Positions 16,251 to 24,671 of a DNA stretch of 64,000 nucleotides are shown here, piece by piece. This DNA is from a candidate division WOR-3 bacterium. Its GTDB lineage: Bacteria; Hydrothermota; Tepidihabitantia; Tepidihabitantales; Tepidihabitantaceae. The translations under genes and the position numbers were made by a program. Every line of letters begins with the position of its first letter. Position 1 is the stretch's first letter. The stretch lies in NCBI GenBank assembly GCA_965648905.1, contig CBFGIT010000004.1:64001-128000 (forward strand), given 5' to 3'. The notes under the pieces are model-generated. The model was not told where the DNA came from. It worked only from the letters and a program-made list of their open reading frames with translations, and did not search any database.

Positions 16251-17042
16251 ATGCAGAAGCGATACGACTACACCGGTAAGGACGTCCAGGACGTTTACGA
16301 CGGCCCGGGCGGCCTGCTGTGGGAAGCAGTGATGTCCGAGCAGATTCACTCGGGCAAGGATGAAGTGACCGACCGGATGGCAGTAGCCGTGGGCCTGAAA
16401 CCGGGCATGCACGTCCTGGACGTGTGCTCGGCTTTGGGCGCGCCGGCCCGGCACATCGCCAAGAAGTACGGCGTCAAGGTGACCGGGCTCGATTTCACCA
16501 AGACCATGCTCACCAAAGCCATCGAACGGACCAAGGCGGCCGGACTCGACCACCTGGTCAATTTCGTCGAAGGTAACGCTATGGACATGCCGTTCAAGAA
16601 GGAAACCTTTGACGTGGTCTGGGGCCAGGAAGCGTGGTGCTACGTCACCGACAAAGACCAGCTCATGTTCGAGGCGGCCCGCGTCTTGAAGCCGGGCGGG
16701 AAGATCATCTTCACCGACTGGGTCATCACCGGCAAGGTAGACGAGCCGCTGCTCGCCAAACTGTACGAGTCGATGGCGTTTCCGTATATGGAGACCCTCG
16801 AAGGCTGGGCTGACCTGATGAAGAAACACGGTCTGAAGGTTATCGAAGTGAAAGACCAGACCGACGAGTACGCGAAGTGCTTTGACGAGTACAAGAAGAT
16901 GGTCGAGGTGGACCTGAAGCCGACCATCGTCAAGAACTTCGGCGAAGAGCTCTTCGGTTTCGCGACCGGGCTCGTGAACCTGTGGCGCGATGCGGCCCAC
17001 GCGCACAAGGTCGGTCGCGGCTGGTATATGGGCCAGAAGTAG
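16251..17042 (+). CDS. Class I SAM-dependent methyltransferase
   Basis: 'VLDVCSALGAPA', 'VTGLDFT', 'EGNAMDMPF', 'RVLKPGG'; SD AGGAG. Confidence 0.9.
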   Translation: MQKRYDYTGKDVQDVYDGPGGLLWEAVMSEQIHSGKDEVTDRMAVAVGLKPGMHVLDVCSALGAPARHIAKKYGVKVTGLDFTKTMLTKAIERTKAAGLDHLVNFVEGNAMDMPFKKETFDVVWGQEAWCYVTDKDQLMFEAARVLKPGGKIIFTDWVITGKVDEPLLAKLYESMAFPYMETLEGWADLMKKHGLKVIEVKDQTDEYAKCFDEYKKMVEVDLKPTIVKNFGEELFGFATGLVNLWRDAAHAHKVGRGWYMGQK

Positions 17043-17117
17043 AGCTGCGGCCAAGCAGGGCGCGGAGCGGGATGGCGACCCGCGCTCTGCCTGGGCCGTG
17101 AACGAACAGGAGCACAC

Positions 17118-18389
17118 ATGTCTGCACACAGGGCTGTCCTGCAGGAACTCGGTTTGAACCTTGAGCTGCATGATGAGGTGCTGAAGTACATCGACCGGAC
17201 TTTTCAGCAGACGGTCGGTGCGCAGCATGGCCGACCCGAAGGAATCGCCTACTTCGACCAAGTGCTGCACGAGTCCCACGGCGGCCGGGTGGCCGAGCTG
17301 GTCGAACAGAAGAAGAGAGGCAGGAAGACCGTGGGCACGTTCTGCATCTACGTGCCCGAGGAACTGGCCATGGCCGCGAACACCGTGCCGGTCGCCCTGT
17401 GCGGCGGAACCCAGTTCTCGGTGCCGCATGCGGAGAAGATGTTCCCGCGCGACATCTGCCCGCTCATCAAGTCCACGCTCGGGCTGGCCTTTTCTAAGAC
17501 CTGTCCGTACGGGCCGCTCAAGAGTTTGGCCGTGGGCGAGACGACCTGCGATGCCAAGAAGAAGACCTGGGAAATCCTTGCCGGCAAGGTGAACTTCCAC
17601 GTCATGGAGCTGCCACAGAAGAAGGACGCAATCGACTTCGAGCTCTGGCGCAACGCAGTGCGGGAGTTCCAGTCGAAGCTGGAAGACCTGTCCGGCACCA
17701 AGGTCACCAAAGAAGCGCTGGGCGAGTCGATTCGGGTCATGAACAACAAGCGCCGGGCTTTGCAGGAGCTGGCCGAGCTGCGCAAGACCAGCCCGCCGCC
17801 GATTTCCGGGCTCGATGCTTTAGTCGTGATGCAGGCAGCACTGTCGGATGAACCGGTGCGCTTCACTGCGGCCGTGAATCGGCTCAACGCCGAGCTGGTG
17901 CAGCGACGGGAAGACGGATTCTCGCCGGTCGCCAGGAATGCAAGGCGGATAATGATTGCCGGCTGCCCTTCGGTGATGGGCAACTGGAAAGTCCACTCGC
18001 TCATTGAGCAGTCCGGTGCGGTCATCGTCCATGACGAAACCTGCACCGGCTCGCGTTACTTCGAGCACCTGATCGACGAGACCGCCCGAGACCTTGAAGG
18101 TCAGGTGAATGCCGTTGCCGACCGGTACATGAAGATCGACTGCGCCTGTTTCACGCCCAACAAGGAGCGCATCGATTCGGTGGTGCAGAAGGCAAAGGAG
18201 TACAACGTCCAGGGCGTCGTGCAGTACGTGCTTCAGACCTGCCACGGTTACAATATCGAAGCGATGCGCGTCGAAGCAGCGCTAAAGGCGGCAAACGTGC
18301 CAAGTCTGAAAATCGTCACCGACTACTCGGAAGAAGACGCGGGGCAGTTGCGCACGCGGATCGAGGCGTTTGTCGAGCAACTCGGCTAG
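17118..18389 (+). CDS. 2-hydroxyacyl-CoA dehydratase-family protein, probably a double-cubane cluster reductase (DCCP)
   Basis: 'GTFCIYVPEE', 'LCGG', 'PRDICPLIKS', 'GETTCDAKKK', 'GCP', 'ETCTGSRY', 'IDCACFTPN', 'QTCHGY', 'TDYSEEDAGQLRTRIEAF'. Confidence 0.85.
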   Translation: MSAHRAVLQELGLNLELHDEVLKYIDRTFQQTVGAQHGRPEGIAYFDQVLHESHGGRVAELVEQKKRGRKTVGTFCIYVPEELAMAANTVPVALCGGTQFSVPHAEKMFPRDICPLIKSTLGLAFSKTCPYGPLKSLAVGETTCDAKKKTWEILAGKVNFHVMELPQKKDAIDFELWRNAVREFQSKLEDLSGTKVTKEALGESIRVMNNKRRALQELAELRKTSPPPISGLDALVVMQAALSDEPVRFTAAVNRLNAELVQRREDGFSPVARNARRIMIAGCPSVMGNWKVHSLIEQSGAVIVHDETCTGSRYFEHLIDETARDLEGQVNAVADRYMKIDCACFTPNKERIDSVVQKAKEYNVQGVVQYVLQTCHGYNIEAMRVEAALKAANVPSLKIVTDYSEEDAGQLRTRIEAFVEQLG

Positions 18390-18397
18390 GAGGTCTT

Positions 18398-19159
18398 GTC
18401 AGGTCAGTTGGCATCGACATCGGCTCGCGCACGACCAAGGTCGTGGTGCTTGAAGACGGCAGGCCGGTCCACTCGTGCGTCGCCGATACCGGCACCGACC
18501 CGCTCGGCGTTGCTCAGCGCCTGCTCGCTGAGGCCGGTACTGACCGGTTGGCACGTGTCATCGCCACCGGCTATGGCCGACACCTGGTCCGTGAGCACCT
18601 GGGCTGCACCGTCGTGACCGAGATAAGGGCCCACGCGCTCGGCGCGAGCCGGCTATTCCCTGCCTGCCACACGGTAATTGACGTCGGCGGACAGGACAGC
18701 AAGGTGATAAGAGTCTCCGCGGGGAAGCAAGCAAACTTCGAGATGAACGACCGGTGCGCTGCCGGCACCGGTCGTTTCCTCGAAGTGATGGCCACGGCCC
18801 TGGGCTACACCCTGGCCGAGTTCGGTCGGGCTGCGCTCGAAGCCCCAAGCTCAGTGACCGTGAACTCGATGTGCACGGTCTTCTCCGAGTCCGAAGTAGT
18901 TTCGCTCATTGCCCGGGGTGCGGACAAGCACGCGATCGCTTGCGGTCTGCACGAGTCGATTGTTGACCGGCTGCTCGCCCTGGTCGGCCGGGTTGGAGCA
19001 GAGCCGGAAGTGGTCCTCTCCGGCGGTGTGGCACTTAACCCATGCATCCGAACGTTGCTCGAAAGCCGGCTCGGGGTCCGGCTTCTGGTGCCGGACCGGC
19101 CGCAACTTGTCGGCGCGATTGGTGCGGCGCTGAGTGTGAATGGAGCAACGGCCGTATGA
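18398..19159 (+). CDS. ATP-dependent activator (BadF/BadG/BcrA/BcrD, CoA-substrate-specific enzyme activase); start codon uncertain
   Basis: 'VGIDIGSRTTK', 'ATGYGR', 'IDVGGQDSK', 'MNDRCAAGTGRFLE', 'NSMCTVFSESEV', 'SGGVALN'. Confidence 0.88.
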   Translation, partial: VRSVGIDIGSRTTKVVVLEDGRPVHSCVADTGTDPLGVAQRLLAEAGTDRLARVIATGYGRHLVREHLGCTVVTEIRAHALGASRLFPACHTVIDVGGQDSKVIRVSAGKQANFEMNDRCAAGTGRFLEVMATALGYTLAEFGRAALEAPSSVTVNSMCTVFSESEVVSLIARGADKHAIACGLHESIVDRLLALVGRVGAEPEVVLSGGVALNPCIRTLLESRLGVRLLVPDRPQLVGAIGAALSVNGATAV

Positions 19160-19202
19160 ACGGCGTGCGCTATCTCTTTACACTCGGCCGGAGGTGGAAC
19201 TC

Positions 19203-19382
19203 GTGACTCACGCTGCAAAGGGAGGCAGTCTGCCTTCCGCGACCGAAGTCCGCCGTGCAGTACCAATCGCGCTGCTGGTTGCCGGGCTAGTCTGCCTGGG
19301 AATCGCCACTCTCCTGCAACAATGGGCTCTTGTCCACCAAGTGAGTACCAGTATATGACTGCCGTGCATGGGCCTGGTTTAG
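19203..19382 (+). CDS. Small membrane selenoprotein candidate (59 aa, C-terminal UxxC; CD1871A-family-like)
   Basis: SD GGAGG at 19190; TM helix; ends STSI-TGA-LPCMGLV-TAG; hairpin GGGCCT-GGTTT-AGGCCC starts 11 nt after the TGA. Confidence 0.75.
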
Positions 19383-19437
19383 GCCCCAAACCCGCTGTCG
19401 GAAGTCCGGCAGCACATGTTCCTGAAAGGAGGAACAC

Positions 19438-21234
19438 ATGACACCAAAGGCCGTGATTCAGGTTTTGCTGGCATTGGCTGCCACGGCCAGCGCATCGCAC
19501 CGGGTGATGGTCATCGAAGACGTCACCGCCACCTGGTGCACCTACTGCCCTGGAGCCGCGCGCGGGGCAGACGAGCTCAAGTTCCGGGCGTTCGATTCGG
19601 TGGTGGTTATCGGATACCACTCGTCCTCAAGCGACCCGTTCTATACCGCAACCGCGGCCGCCCGTATGAGCTACTACGGAGTAACGGGATATCCGACCGT
19701 GGTGCTCGACGGCTCCAACTCGATTGTCGGTGGTCTGCACACCGGTACGATGTACCCGACCTATCGTCAGTACTTTGACTACCGGAAAACCGTTCCGACG
19801 CCGCTCGAAATCGACCTGTCGGTTGCCTACGATTCAGTGAGCCGTAACGGTACTCTTACCATCGTGGTGCGCAACATCGGTTCGTCCTCAGTCAGCGGCC
19901 AGTTGCAGGTCGCGCTCATCGAGAGCCACATCTACTATCCCTGGCAGGGGATGGACAGCCTGCAGGACGTCGAGCGAACCATGCTGCCAAATGCTTCAGG
20001 CGAGGCTATCACAGTCCCGGCCGGAGATTCAGTCGTTCGTACGCGCAGTTTCAGCATCAACCCGAGCTGGGTTGCGCGCAACTGCGACTTCGTAGTCTTT
20101 GTGCAGAACAACACGAATCGCGAGATGTTCCAGGGCGCGACAATCGCGGTCATCCCCGAGCCAGTGCTTCGGTTCGTCGGTTACCAGTCGGTGCTGCCCG
20201 CACCGGGCGGCGAGTTCGACCTGACCGTTGGTCTGCGCAACATCGGCTCAGCCAATGCTCAGGGCGCAAGCGCCGCGCTCTCAACCACCGACCCGAACGT
20301 GACCGTGCTCACCGCGAATGCGAACTTCGGGCCGATCAGGGTGGCCGAGGACGGTTACGCACAGACGCCGTTTCGCATCAGCGTGTCAAGTGGCTGTCCG
20401 GACCCGCATGTCGCCTCAATGCGCCTGGTCGTCACGGGCTCGGACTTCAGTATCGACACTGTCCTCTTCCCACTCAACATCACCGCGAGCCCGGGCTACT
20501 GCGACAACATGGAGTACGGCCAGCATGGCTGGACGCACAACGGCATATTGGACAACTGGCACCTGACTACCTATCGCAGCGTGTCGCCGACTCACAGTTG
20601 GTACTGCGGCCAGGAAGGCAGCTATCAGTATACCAACGAGAATGACGCCCGGCTGATGACGCCTTTCTACACCATCGGGGACTCAACCGCGATGCACTTC
20701 CAGCACTACTACGGCACTGAGCTGAACTATGACTTCTGCCTGGTGGAAATCGGCAACGGTTCACCCTTCTGGTGGCCGCTCGCGCAGTACAGCGGCTCCT
20801 CATCAGGCTGGCAGCAGGCCGACTTCAACCTGGCCCGGTTCCAGGGGCAGACCGTGCAGGTCCGGTTCCGCTTCATCAGCGACTACAACGTGACCGGCGA
20901 AGGATGGTACATCGACGACTTCTGGAGCGGAGCGCTGACCGGGGTGGCGGAACGGTCGCATGGTCTGGTTCTTTCCACCGGGACAGGCAGCAACCCGTGC
21001 CATAAGAATGCGCGGTTGCACTATCAACTGCCCGCGGGCAGGGACGGCAGCATTGCGGTCTTCGACATCGACGGCCGCGTGGTGCGCTGCCTCAAAAGGT
21101 CAGTCACTGGTTCGGGTCGGGCCGACTGGAACCTTGCCGATGACCTCGGACAGCCGGTAGGAAACGGGACCTACTTTGTCCGACTGAAGTCAGGCGACGC
21201 TGCTCAGACCGTGAAGCTCGCCGTAGTCAGGTAG
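19438..21234 (+). CDS. Omp28-related thioredoxin-fold protein with Ig-like, beta-sandwich and T9SS/FlgD-like C-terminal domains
   Basis: Signal peptide; 'EDVTATWCTYCP', 'YYGVTGYPTVVLDG'; 'VRFRFISD..GWYIDD'; 'IAVFDIDGRVV..GTYFVRL'. Confidence 0.85.
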   Translation: MTPKAVIQVLLALAATASASHRVMVIEDVTATWCTYCPGAARGADELKFRAFDSVVVIGYHSSSSDPFYTATAAARMSYYGVTGYPTVVLDGSNSIVGGLHTGTMYPTYRQYFDYRKTVPTPLEIDLSVAYDSVSRNGTLTIVVRNIGSSSVSGQLQVALIESHIYYPWQGMDSLQDVERTMLPNASGEAITVPAGDSVVRTRSFSINPSWVARNCDFVVFVQNNTNREMFQGATIAVIPEPVLRFVGYQSVLPAPGGEFDLTVGLRNIGSANAQGASAALSTTDPNVTVLTANANFGPIRVAEDGYAQTPFRISVSSGCPDPHVASMRLVVTGSDFSIDTVLFPLNITASPGYCDNMEYGQHGWTHNGILDNWHLTTYRSVSPTHSWYCGQEGSYQYTNENDARLMTPFYTIGDSTAMHFQHYYGTELNYDFCLVEIGNGSPFWWPLAQYSGSSSGWQQADFNLARFQGQTVQVRFRFISDYNVTGEGWYIDDFWSGALTGVAERSHGLVLSTGTGSNPCHKNARLHYQLPAGRDGSIAVFDIDGRVVRCLKRSVTGSGRADWNLADDLGQPVGNGTYFVRLKSGDAAQTVKLAVVR

Positions 21235-21241
21235 GAGAACG

Positions 21242-22036
21242 ATGTCTTTGTCAGTGGCGACCAGAGCCCTTGGTCTGGCCTCCTTTCTGGGCCTGGTCGC
21301 CCTGACCGGATGTTCTTCTGCGCCCGAGGTGTCGATTATCCCGACCAACCGCGTGGTGCTGGCTGAGCTCTTTACCTGGCAGCGCTGTTCCTACTGCCCC
21401 TATGCTGCGCGCACGCTCGACAGTCTGGCCCGTGAGTTCGCAGACAGCGTGGTCGTGGTAGCGTATCACCGCCGGGTTGCGGGTGATACGCTCTCGCCCG
21501 AGTACGTCGAGGAACGACGGGCCTACTACTACGACCAGGGCGGCGAACCGGCCACGGTCTTTGACGGCGGACCGCCGGTGCGCACACCCGGGCCTGAGCA
21601 CAACTACGCGACTTTCCGCAACTACATCTTGGCCGCAAAGAGCGTGACGCCCAAGGTCCAGCTCGACCTTGCCGCGGAGCTTGACTCGCTCGAAGGCACG
21701 GTCACGGTTGCGGCGCGCGGCGTCGACTCGACACCATCAGATACTCTGCAACTGTTTGTTGTGCTGGTTGAGGACAGCGTGCGCAAAGACCTGCCCGGCG
21801 CGACTGATTCGGTGTTCAACAGCGTCATGCGGGCGATGCTGCCTGGCCCGACCGGGCGACCGATTCGGCTCACACGACTGGATACGCTGACGGTCAAAGA
21901 GTCGTTCCCTCTTAACCAGAAGTGGAACCGCGCGCGGCTCGGGGTAGTGGCGTTTGTCCAGCACCCGACCACGCAACAGGTCCTGCAGGCGGCCGCCATC
22001 CACAGACTCGCAGATACGAAAGGAGTCCAACAATGA
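21242..22036 (+). CDS. Omp28-related thioredoxin-fold lipoprotein
   Basis: Lipobox LTG-C; 'ELFTWQRCSYCP'; 'VVAFVQ..VLQA'. Confidence 0.85.
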   Translation: MSLSVATRALGLASFLGLVALTGCSSAPEVSIIPTNRVVLAELFTWQRCSYCPYAARTLDSLAREFADSVVVVAYHRRVAGDTLSPEYVEERRAYYYDQGGEPATVFDGGPPVRTPGPEHNYATFRNYILAAKSVTPKVQLDLAAELDSLEGTVTVAARGVDSTPSDTLQLFVVLVEDSVRKDLPGATDSVFNSVMRAMLPGPTGRPIRLTRLDTLTVKESFPLNQKWNRARLGVVAFVQHPTTQQVLQAAAIHRLADTKGVQQ

Positions 22037-22704
22037 ACCACTCGACACTGAGGCTCTATTTCCTGGTTCTGGCAACAGGTGTCTTCCTTACCGACGCAAC
22101 GGCGTTCTCTTCGCCGTTCAGTCTGGTCTGCCGCTCTGACACCGTGCAGCAGGTAGAACCAGGCGGCCAGTCCGAGTTTCATTTCACCTTGACCAACACC
22201 GGCACGCAGCCAGACGTCTACCGGCTTGACTACCGTGTGCTCGACAGCGTACCCGGCTGGATTGTAGTCTGCTGCGTGCGCGGCCGATGCGCTGAGCCGG
22301 GCGTGCCGTTCTTCGACACGCTGGCACCGGGCGAGGCGGACTCCTCGCCCGACCTGACCGTGTACACCAACTCGACCCACGGCGAAGAGGTCGTCAATCT
22401 CAAAGTAACGTCACTGGGCGAGCCGCAGATGGTGGACTCAATCAGTACGCGTACACGCGTGGGCGCGGGCGTTGCTGAGCCGGGCCGCTCCTCCCGGGCT
22501 TGCCGGATTCAGCCCGCAGCGCGCGTCGTGCGTGACATGCTCTTGCTGGATGCTGAATGCTCGCCAGCCGTGTTGCTCGATGCCTGCGGCCGCAGTGTTC
22601 TCAGCCTGACCAGCGGCCCAAACCGAATTGCGCGGCTCGCCCCCGGCGTGTACTTCGTGCGCCCGACCGACCACAGACCGGGCGCAAAGGTCGTAGTGAA
22701 CTAA
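22033..22704 (+). CDS. Exported Ig-like protein with a Cys cluster and a T9SS-like C-terminal tail
   Basis: Signal peptide; 'WIVVCCVRGRC'; 'LLDACGRSV..LAPGVYFV..KVVV'. Confidence 0.75.
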   Translation: MNHSTLRLYFLVLATGVFLTDATAFSSPFSLVCRSDTVQQVEPGGQSEFHFTLTNTGTQPDVYRLDYRVLDSVPGWIVVCCVRGRCAEPGVPFFDTLAPGEADSSPDLTVYTNSTHGEEVVNLKVTSLGEPQMVDSISTRTRVGAGVAEPGRSSRACRIQPAARVVRDMLLLDAECSPAVLLDACGRSVLSLTSGPNRIARLAPGVYFVRPTDHRPGAKVVVN

Positions 22705-22743
22705 GCGCCACTCGACAATGGGCCAGGGTCGGCACAAACGGCG

Positions 22744-23010
22744 GTGACTACAGGAACGCGGCCCGGCAGGGTTCCTGCCGGCTCCTGCGAACCGGACGGC
22801 GTCGAGTTGGCCTTTGCGTCGGTGCGCGAGTTGCTGCGTGCCGGCGAGCTGCTCAGGTCGGCAGGCTTTGACGTACTGGTAGTCCCGCGCCGCGTTCCGG
22901 ATTGCGGGGCGCTGCTGCTTCTCCCGCGTCGGTCGGTTGAGGCCGCACTCGCCTTGCTTGCAGCGCACTCAATTTCGCCCGTTGAGGAGGTGAATCATGA
23001 GCGACAGTAG
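22744..23010 (+). CDS. DUF3343-like putative Se/S carrier protein
   Basis: 'FASVRELLRAGELL..G..VVPRRVPDCG'; lies directly before yedF. Confidence 0.65.
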   Translation: MTTGTRPGRVPAGSCEPDGVELAFASVRELLRAGELLRSAGFDVLVVPRRVPDCGALLLLPRRSVEAALALLAAHSISPVEEVNHERQ

Positions 23011-23608
23011 TTCTGGACCGCAGAAACCAGCAGTGGAGCTTGATGTCCGCGGACTTGTCTGCCCGGAGCCGGTGGTAAGAACAAGAAAGGCTTTGGAAAG
23101 CGCCACGGTGGGAACGGTCGTGACCGTTACGACCGACAGCCCGGAGTCCCGGGACAACATCATTCGGTTTGCCCGGCGCTCAGGATGTCCGGCCGTGACC
23201 GAAGAAACAAAGTCGGGCGTCTTCATTGTTCGCATCACCAAGGCCAGTGTCCCCGGGCCGGTCTGCACGCGAACCGGCACAACCGTACTCGTTACATCAG
23301 AACGACTCGGTTCCGGTGACGACAAGCTGGGCAACCTGCTCATGACCCTGTTCCTGCGTACCCTGACCGAGCTGCCTTCACGACCATCGATTCTGGCGCT
23401 GATGAACGGCGGTATCAAACTGGCCTTGTCCGACTCGGAGCATCTTCCGTCGCTGCGTAGCCTGGCTGACCAGGGTGTCAAGGTGATGGTCTGCGGCACC
23501 TGCCTTGATTTCTTCGGGGTCAAGGACCGCGTGTCGGTCGGCACTGTCTCCAACATGTACGAACTGGCCGAATCACTCGCGGCCGCCGAGAAGGTCATCG
23601 TACTCTAA
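22997..23608 (+). CDS. yedF: Sulfurtransferase-like selenium metabolism protein YedF (TusA plus DsrE domains)
   Basis: 'LDVRGLVCPEPVV', 'LGSGDDKLG', 'MNGGIKL', 'CGTCLDFF', 'VGTVSNMYE'. Confidence 0.9.
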   Translation: MSDSSSGPQKPAVELDVRGLVCPEPVVRTRKALESATVGTVVTVTTDSPESRDNIIRFARRSGCPAVTEETKSGVFIVRITKASVPGPVCTRTGTTVLVTSERLGSGDDKLGNLLMTLFLRTLTELPSRPSILALMNGGIKLALSDSEHLPSLRSLADQGVKVMVCGTCLDFFGVKDRVSVGTVSNMYELAESLAAAEKVIVL

Positions 23609-23621
23609 TCCAGGAGGAATC

Positions 23622-24671
23622 TTGAAGCGTCGTCTGCTCGACTACGCCAAGGCCGCGGGCTGAGCGGCCAAGGTCTGCCAGGAAGACCTGGCGCAGGTAC
23701 TGCGTCAGCTTCCTGCCTTCTCGCATCCTGACCTCCTGGTCGGCGGCGAGACCTCGGACGACGCCGGCGTGTACCGGCTCGACCCGGAACGCGCGCTCGT
23801 CTTGACCGTGGACGTGCTCACGCCGATTGCCGACGACCCCTATGTCTTCGGCCAGATTGCCGCGGCCAACTCGCTATCCGACGTGTATGCCATGGGCGGC
23901 ACGCCGGTCGCGGCCCTGAGCATCATCACCTTTCCGGTCGGCGAGATTGCGCATGACGACGTGCGGGCGATGCTCGCGGGCGCTTGGGACAAGGTGCGTG
24001 AGGCCGAAGCGGTCATCGCCGGCGGCCACACGCTCAAGGATGTCGAGGTCAAGTGCGGGCTTTCGGTCACCGGCCTGGTCCACCCGGACCGGGTGGTGAA
24101 GAACGTTGGCGCCAGACCCGGCGACACGCTGGTCCTTACCAAGCCACTCGGCACCGGTATCATCACCACTGCCTTGCGGGTCGACCTCGCGCCGGCGTCC
24201 GCAGTCGCTGAGGCAAACCGAGTGATGACAACGCTGAACCGGGCTGCGGCTCGGGCCATGTGCGAGACCGGAGTTCATGCCGCGACCGATATCACCGGGT
24301 TCGGCCTGCTTGGCCATGCCTGGGAAATGGCGCAGACCGGCGACATAGACATCGTCATCGAAGCAGAACAGGTTCCGCTCATACCCGGGGCGCTGGACCT
24401 GGCTGGAGAGTCGCTCTTTCCTGCCGGCTCGCTTAAGAACTGCGACTTCATGAAATCGCGGGCCGACTTTGCTCCGTCCGTACCTGAAGACCGGCGCCTG
24501 CTCCTGTGCGATGCCCAGACATCAGGCGGGCTGCTCATGTCTGTTCCGGAAGCCCGGGCTGATTCGCTGCTGAACCGGCTTCACGATGCGGGTGTCCAAG
24601 AAGCCGCTGTTATCGGCCGGGTCCGGGAAGGTTCTGGCCGGATTCAGGTCACCTGGACTCCCCAACTGTGA
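23622..24671 (+). CDS. selD: Selenide, water dikinase SelD, Sec-containing (UGA at 23661-23663)
   Basis: SD AGGAGG and TTG start; 'YAKAAG-U-AAK'; 'SDDAGVY', 'FGQIAAANSLSDVYAMGG', 'TDITGFGLLGH', 'DAQTSGGLL'. Confidence 0.95.

Follow-up and report, generated by a model that had tools for sequence, protein, structure and literature searches.

Does the small gene that begins at position 19203 of the DNA studied here end at its first in-frame TGA, or is that codon read as selenocysteine (Sec, U), giving the protein a short tail with a terminal U-x-x-C? The question arises in a 64,000-nucleotide (nt) stretch from a candidate division WOR-3 bacterium of the family Tepidihabitantaceae (assembly GCA_965648905.1, contig CBFGIT010000004.1, positions 64,001 to 128,000 of the forward strand), which we call the window and whose positions we use throughout. 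A preliminary description of the window had proposed a hidden Sec-containing membrane microprotein at this place. Very probably that proposal is right. Comparison with homologues indicates that 19203-19382 is a genuine gene whose product is a selenoprotein of 59 residues with a single membrane pass, the UGA at 19356-19358 being decoded as Sec under the direction of a hairpin at 19370-19386, and none of the checks run against the proposal overturned it.

The small gene and its product

The elements of the gene are as follows.

19190..19196, + strand: Shine-Dalgarno sequence GGAGGTG, 6 nt upstream of the GTG start, read from the sequence
19203..19382, + strand: small gene, very probably for a selenoprotein, 59 codons plus TAG; start GTG19203, stop 19380-19382
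19356..19358, + strand: UGA probably read as Sec, first position of U-x-x-C; Cys codons are aligned with it in homologues
19370..19386, + strand: hairpin GGGCCU-GGUUU-AGGCCC of the putative selenocysteine insertion sequence (SECIS) type, 6 bp, with covariation in Sec forms

The reading frame is open from GTG19203 to the TGA and then runs through CTG CCG TGC ATG GGC CTG GTT to the TAG, exactly as had been described. Read-through gives the 59-residue product MTHAAKGGSLPSATEVRRAVPIALLVAGLVCLGIATLLQQWALVHQVSTSI-U-LPCMGLV, whose C-terminus around Sec is ...QQWALVHQVSTSI-U-LPCMGLV* (tail ...VSTSI-U-LPC-MGLV). The product consists of an N-terminus with an Arg-Arg pair, a 20-residue hydrophobic helix and a short tail carrying the terminal U-x-x-C. 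The transmembrane helix that was said to precede the tail is found at about residues 19-38, where the 15-residue Kyte-Doolittle mean reaches up to 2.7. Sec would thus sit 8 residues from the end of the product, within UxxC, on a membrane anchor. The GGAGGTG motif is also present upstream of the gene in relatives, where the upstream frame reads ...AEV... or ...PEVE....

Homologues and the coding sequence beyond the TGA

When the read-through protein was searched against 60 relatives in all six frames, 40 of 61 genomes gave a match at E<=10. The 20 top-scoring places form a gapless alignment of the last 46 residues, with TGA (9 places) or TGC/TGT (11 places) at the first Cys; their consensus is RR-helix-W.RI.YFSTQI[C/U]LSCMGLV. 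Profile A1, built from these 20 places, scores 70.6 bits at the window gene and finds the microprotein family in 171 of 272 WOR-3 genomes searched across the phylum, among them all 43 relatives from the window's family. Among 150 phylum-wide matches listed with this profile, 61 carry one TGA (hand count), in 45 genomes; 56 further matches lie outside these 150. The genomes with a TGA form among the matches listed are 42 of the 44 of family f1 (the window's own), two of f2 and one of f37.

For closer comparison, 92 distinct homologues were assembled from all listed TGA places and a subset of the others, followed by a hidden Markov model scan. The TGA column holds TGA in 59 and TGC or TGT in 33, a ratio that is no natural frequency because all listed TGA matches and only part of the Cys ones were sampled. 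All 92 run on to C-[M/I/T]-G-x-x-stop.

The sequence beyond the TGA carries the mark of a protein. Over the seven codons that follow it, 58 distinct Sec forms have a mean entropy of 0.15, 0.16 and 1.20 at codon positions 1, 2 and 3; in the 18 nt beyond the real stop the values are 1.73, 1.63 and 1.61. Pairwise codon differences within the seven codons are 4857 synonymous versus 919 non-synonymous, and the ten codons before the TGA are looser, with 3803 versus 6043. The real stop of the same Sec forms (n=58) is TAG in 56 and TAA in 2, and never TGA; 11 of the Cys forms in a 24-row alignment end in TGA. Judged by this codon pattern, the stretch after the TGA is translated. Cys in place of the stop in homologues and conservation of the protein sequence past the UGA are both what a Sec codon had led one to expect, and both were found.

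Copies of both kinds can occur together. Two loci of genus g10 (L138 and L142) have a tandem Cys copy and Sec copy in one cluster, with an AhpC/TSA redoxin gene between them.

The hairpin after the TGA

The preliminary description had placed a hairpin exactly 11 nt after the TGA with a G-led loop, and the sequence confirms both features: the hairpin starts after an 11-nt gap (19359-19369), and its loop opens with G. It encloses the true stop codon. The 3′ arm is made of the A and G of the TAG (19380-19382) and four non-coding bases.

Covariation among relatives gives this hairpin its weight. When 57 Sec forms with the standard tail are aligned without gaps (A3), columns 15-20 pair with columns 26-31; 96.5% of the pair cells form standard pairs, and 36 cells are changed on both sides. 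The covariation score is reached by 0 of 500 shuffles, and slid registers pair only 27-65%. Compensatory changes occur at three of the six pairs. Pair 18-28, which links the Gly codon's third base with the base right behind the stop, is C-G in 23 sequences, G-C in 21, U-A in 11, A-U in 1 and U-G in 1, and is unpaired in 0. Pair 19-27 is C-G in 54 sequences and U-A in the two that have Leu codon TTA together with stop TAA. All six pairs form in 47 of the 57 sequences, five in nine and three in one (L104, from another family). Two Sec forms whose tails differ in length (L018 and L019) each carry an equivalent hairpin. Among 24 Cys forms, pairing at these columns is 55.6% of cells and no sequence makes all six pairs; the stop of the Cys forms usually abuts the A-rich ribosome site of the next gene. 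On this comparative evidence, 19370-19386 is a minimal bacterial SECIS, unusual in enclosing the gene's true stop.

The upper stem-loop of the E. coli fdhF minimal SECIS offers a comparison. Both are short GC stem-loops 11 nt past the UGA, with G and U in the apical loop. The window hairpin differs in that its stem has no evident bulged U (none is predicted in its fold), in that the stop codon is enclosed and half of the element is non-coding, and in that its binding by SelB is only putative. Reviews, where they treat the bacterial SECIS, describe it as a stem-loop immediately 3′ of the UGA. The SECIS of the window's selD gene, also compared, is a different and longer hairpin, and no useful common rule emerged.

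The sequence with three pairs, L104 (genome G252, family f37), is the sole Sec form seen outside the window's order. It ends ...NASLLULSCIGIG*, its hairpin is differently placed (UGGGU-AGUU-ACCCA), and its genome has selA. The other register of this hairpin suggests an independent Cys-to-Sec change.

Selenium machinery of the genome

Decoding of UGA as Sec depends on machinery that the genome possesses. The genes selA (560.5 bits) and selB (348.4 bits) are present, as is selC, the tRNA-Sec (72.2 bits), which ARAGORN calls tRNA-SeC with anticodon tca. A Sec-type selD had been placed near the small gene, and one does lie downstream on the same strand.

23622..24671, + strand: SelD, Sec-type selenophosphate synthetase; TTG23622 start, U at TGA 23661-23663, TIGR00476 309 bits

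Around its Sec this protein reads ...KAAG-U-AAK. The genome has two Sec-type selD genes, the window copy by yedF and another (G000:C8:88040-88942) by selB (C8:89013-90884).

The distribution of selA follows that of the TGA forms closely. It is found (E<=1e-20) in 43 of the 45 genomes with a TGA form, and the families in which no selA was found (e.g. f8, f15, f16, f23) have no TGA form among the matches listed.

Other readings of the TGA

Two other readings have to be weighed. Read-through of the UGA with no Sec, either by near-cognate insertion of Trp or Cys or as a tolerated, decaying Cys-to-stop pseudogene, is highly improbable. It would suit the single base change that separates TGC or TGT from TGA, the extra TGA copy in L068 that has no second Cys and looks decayed, and the two TGA-form genomes in which selA was not found (G022, 92% complete, and G223, 74% complete), but not a TGA kept in 59 distinct sequences, 45 genomes and many genera among the matches listed, a covarying hairpin at SECIS spacing, full Sec machinery in the window's genome, or the coincidence of TGA forms with selA described above.

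We give equally little credence to an ordinary stop that leaves a 51-residue membrane peptide and an incidental or transcript-stabilising hairpin: public gene calls do end at the TGA (P0019 and the 37-residue forms), the window hairpin alone is not significant, and TGA terminates 744 of the 1578 open reading frames of at least 300 residues in the genome and is thus the commonest ordinary stop and not reassigned, but Cys codons stand at the same column in 33 of 92 homologues, the frame runs on to a conserved C-M-G-L-V, the 3-periodic constraint lasts exactly seven codons past the TGA and is gone after the TAG, and the hairpin goes with TGA and not with Cys.

Besides the sampling of the homologues, the decayed copy and the two genomes just named, several points weigh against Sec at 19356-19358. 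By itself the window hairpin is no better than chance, and its significance comes solely from the comparison with relatives: folding of 19356-19415 gives z = -1.77 (10 of 200 shuffles fold as well), and 19356-19410 gives z = -0.35 (66 of 200). No Rfam family matched in 19150-19480 at E<=10. Loop column 22 is an invariant G in A3, but this G is also the first base of a Val or Gly codon, and its conservation cannot be credited to SelB binding. Finally, Sec at this codon is assigned, as very probable, from sequence comparison.

Public annotation and family membership

Annotation does cut the protein at the UGA, as had been suspected. In public collections the Cys forms are whole and the Sec forms end one residue before Sec, under the name 'hypothetical protein' where they are named; 34 of 179 retrieved public proteins end there. 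One of them, P0019 (51 residues), is 92% identical to the window protein, has the equivalent GTG start and ends at the residue before the TGA. The public Sec entries have 37-51 residues, and many of the 37-residue ones end ...HRFAAQI. The names that public homologues bear agree with candidate division WOR-3 as the lineage. Among public sequencing runs, no RNA run carrying the sequence was listed, and one DNA run contained 0.25 of the sampled words.

The microprotein had also been likened to the CD1871A family, whose model NF040920 has 38 positions. At the level of the family this likeness stood. Profile A2, made from 68 family members, gave 580 cluster representatives at E<=0.001 in 1.84 billion proteins, and 55 of its 145 full-length public hits match NF040920 at E<=9e-8, which we estimate at about 32 bits or more (best 3.7e-16). 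Tails among the full-length hits include ICLECIGIG and LCLSCIGIG. The window protein has the same architecture of about 40-60 residues with one transmembrane helix and a C-terminal CxxC, and like CD1871A proteins it continues from the helix into an I/L-C-x-x-C-I/M-G C-terminus, with the difference that Sec takes the place of the first Cys.

For the window protein itself the likeness did not hold. It has no match to NF040920 (cut-off 32 bits) at E<=1, and only 22 of the 68 family members match the model at E<=0.01; both results speak against membership. A second copy in the same genome, described below, reaches 27.8 bits against the cut-off of 32. By these profile scores, the window protein is a divergent relative of the CD1871A family and not a member by the curated threshold.

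The name of NF040920 does not include the wording '(seleno)protein', which is used in the name of another NCBIfam family. As we read the convention, this wording marks families with known Sec members.

Two gene contexts

The window's genome holds a second Sec copy of the small gene (G000:C1:120731-120865; locus L124, 7001-7138), with a TGA and 65.2 bits to profile A1. Its sequence is MKRR...GDPETIHRFAAQIULSCMGLV. It lies downstream of AhpC/TSA and DUF6029 genes and directly upstream of the gene for a 536-residue NapH-like 4Fe-4S membrane protein.

This second copy represents the commoner arrangement, context 1, in which the order is an Omp28-like or unknown protein, an AhpC/TSA (ResA-like) redoxin, DUF6029, the small gene, the NapH-like 4Fe-4S membrane protein, lipoyl synthase and a major facilitator superfamily (MFS) transporter. 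It contains 44 Sec forms and 17 Cys forms, all with the NapH-like gene directly downstream, and the 17 Cys forms come from other families of the WOR-3 phylum. In one Cys form (L110, 2894-2899), the TGA stop of the small gene overlaps the ATG of the NapH-like gene as ATGA, an overlap we read as a sign of translational coupling. The neighbour of the second copy resembles NapH/MauN-type ferredoxin membrane proteins in its Fer4_5 and dicluster domains and its conserved CxxxCP motifs, which are invariant in the NapH-like neighbours. It is unlike NapH proper (TIGR02163) in scoring 58.9 bits against a cut-off of 213, and no nap genes were seen beside the NapH-like gene in the loci examined.

The window's copy belongs to context 2, with the order methyltransferase, optional double-cubane reductase and activase, small gene, large and small Omp28-like CxxC proteins, secreted protein of no known family, optional YedF, and SelD. 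It comprises 14 Sec and 13 Cys forms. In 24 of the 27 loci the small gene has an Omp28-like gene after it, either for the large protein or for its smaller paralogue; the 3 exceptions have the Omp28-like gene on the upstream side, have an AhpC/TSA gene in between, or stop at a contig end. Four context-2 copies (L068, L080, L081 and L091) are of a sequence type otherwise typical of context 1, which means that the two lineages have exchanged or re-duplicated.

In the window, the following features surround the small gene and lead up to SelD.

16251..17042, + strand: S-adenosylmethionine (SAM) methyltransferase, UbiE/ArsM-like (Pfam; DVU_1556 family 89 bits, below the cut-off of 155)
17118..18389, + strand: double-cubane-cluster anaerobic reductase (NF040772, 465.8 bits, cut-off 350)
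18443..19159, + strand: acyl-CoA dehydratase-type activase ATPase, partner of the double-cubane protein (TIGR00241, 207.7 bits)
19394..19413, + strand: second hairpin, GCUGUCGG-AAGU-CCGGCAGC, 8 bp, between the small gene and the Omp28-like gene
19438..21234, + strand: Omp28-like thioredoxin-fold protein with signal peptide, WCTYC, MAM-like domain and a type IX secretion system (T9SS) sorting tail, directly downstream of the small gene
21242..22036, + strand: Omp28-like lipoprotein with a CSYC motif (family scans)
22033..22707, + strand: secreted protein of no known family, with a Cys in ...VRGRCAEPG...
22997..23608, + strand: YedF, sulfurtransferase-like selenium metabolism protein (TIGR03527, 188.7 bits, cut-off 110)

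The second hairpin is not tied to Sec: in L017, L022 and L044 a similar sequence stands behind Sec copies and Cys copies alike. Most loci of context 2 have a methyltransferase gene upstream of the small gene, and the double-cubane reductase, the activase and the ArsM/UbiE-like methyltransferase (16251-19159) travel with the SelD/YedF/Omp28 cluster. In L126 and L127, genes for the ferredoxin-thioredoxin reductase catalytic chain are found near that cluster. The Cys of the 22033-22707 protein aligns with an in-frame TGA in L019, L023 and L128 (...GFHUGEPG, ...GFRUAEPG and ...RFGUAEPG), which makes this protein a candidate for a second Sec/Cys family in the window's cluster.

An adjacent 4Fe-4S membrane protein is presumably a trait of the CD1871A family, and it is seen here in WOR-3 only. 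The preliminary description had remarked that no such partner is adjacent. That is correct for the window copy, which has an Omp28-like gene next to it, but not for the genome as a whole, in which the second copy has one.

What the protein may do

Two accounts of function deserve discussion. The Arg-Arg pair before the helix, under the positive-inside rule, would leave the N-terminus in the cytoplasm and put UxxC outside the cytoplasmic membrane, at its outer face. There the U-x-x-C pair may cycle between a selenol/thiol and a selenenylsulfide form and so act as a membrane-tethered redox relay. In context 1 the NapH-like 4Fe-4S membrane protein would be the electron donor, and the ResA/TlpA-like redoxin and the Omp28-like thioredoxin-fold protein would be the acceptors. 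The window copy would be a paralogue recruited into context 2, where it might serve the exported Omp28-like proteins in a selenium-linked envelope pathway. The account we favour, tentatively and at somewhat less than an even chance, is a selenenylsulfide/selenol-thiol relay, tethered to the membrane, between an iron-sulfur protein and exported redoxins. It is favoured by the exported thioredoxin-fold CxxC neighbours in both contexts, together with the polyferredoxin-type partner in context 1.

The pairing in context 1 was also modelled. A complex prediction for the L110 small protein (Cys form) with its NapH-like neighbour scored 0.53 (runs 0.53, 0.57 and 0.52), and the best of 3 controls scored 0.00. 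The contacts of the runs agree to at least 98%, and the predicted local distance difference test (pLDDT) score of the partner is at least 76. The mark applied is passed by 116 of 157 solved complexes and 2 of 215 mismatched pairs, with 18 of the 157 and both mismatches at 0.60 or below, and it is a rough guide here, as our own alignments were used. The prediction lends weak support to a pairing of the small protein with the NapH-like protein.

Several observations tell against the relay. The complex prediction concerns a Cys orthologue from context 1 and not the window copy, and the window copy has no NapH-like neighbour. An AlphaFold2 monomer prediction (alignment A2) gives one helix at residues 4-40 with a mean pLDDT of 70.3, but pLDDT is 51-61 over the C-terminal half, which makes the model uninformative on the geometry of UxxC. 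The genome also encodes a CcdA/DsbD-type (DsbD_TM) protein, at 74.6 bits, and the proposed relay would therefore not be the sole route for envelope reductant.

The same DsbD_TM protein led us to reject the idea that the relay substitutes for a missing DsbD/CcdA. The likeness to DsbD/CcdA is one of proposed role only, the supply of reducing power to exported thioredoxin-fold proteins; the microprotein has no homology with them.

The second account is that U-x-x-C is a ligand or carrier, holding a metal or the Fe-S cluster of the NapH-like partner, or passing selenium or sulfur (as perselenide or selenotrisulfide) from the envelope towards YedF and SelD. The window copy is clustered with YedF and a second SelD and has an ArsM-like methyltransferase upstream, and no YedE-type transporter (PF04143, Sulf_transp) was found in the 99.57% complete genome. 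In its treatment of transporter-associated selenoproteins, a 2026 review suggests that Sec may be a metal ligand in several of them (PMC13188914). We nonetheless consider this account unlikely: both contexts share, as neighbours, thioredoxin-fold CxxC proteins (Omp28-like, AhpC/TSA-ResA-like), a pattern typical of thiol-disulfide exchange, no metal-binding family matched the window protein in scans of the family libraries, and the Cys forms keep the same cluster, SelD included, so that the cluster is independent of Sec in the microprotein.

The redox relay could be extended into a larger scheme, which we offer as speculation with only a small chance of being correct. The microprotein and its NapH-like neighbour may form an undescribed two-part machine that moves electrons from cytoplasmic Fe-S centres to the outer-face selenol/thiol pair and on to exported thioredoxin-fold proteins, distinct from DsbD/CcdA. 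Through the window paralogue, the same chemistry might be built into a dedicated SelD2-YedF-methyltransferase-double-cubane pathway by which selenium is captured or processed at the cell surface of an organism with no YedE.

Relation to known selenoproteins

More than 100 prokaryotic selenoprotein families are counted in the 2026 review, and its Table 1 includes UXX-star, KCU-star and UXPK-star, families in which a few residues separate Sec from the C-terminus (PMC13188914). The window protein is like these three in having Sec so near the stop that the SECIS must reach or pass the stop codon (the position of their SECIS is inferred). It is unlike them in sequence, to which it shows no relation, and none of their NCBIfam models match the window family. 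The same review gives the Omp28-related NF045500 ('hypothetical protein GOS_C') as a UxxC selenoprotein family (PMC13188914). The window's two Omp28-like proteins match that model at 75.1 and 48.7 bits; neither reaches the cut-off of 200, and both are Cys forms (WCTYC and CSYC).

Table 1 of the review contains no membrane microprotein of about 45-60 residues and no NF040920 (PMC13188914). No mention of CD1871A or NF040920 was found in the literature searched, nor any paper joining selenoprotein with WOR-3, and the microprotein family was not found in the deep-Sep supplements. On the sequence comparison, we regard this as a new family of selenoproteins, in which an already known Cys family appears in its Sec form; no prior listing was found in the literature searched, and an earlier description in two Haft papers is possible.

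The presence of Sec where relatives have Cys points to chemistry of a redox or nucleophilic kind at the first Cys, and it would give CD1871A-type proteins a chemical handle once their entries are corrected. At present the public Sec entries lack the active-site motif, even though the family is found in well over half of the WOR-3 genomes searched. Corrected entries would tie the family to two conserved and testable gene neighbourhoods. Finally, the small gene would provide a clean natural case of a minimal bacterial SECIS with the stop codon in its stem, where the choice between TAG and TAA covaries with a Leu codon.

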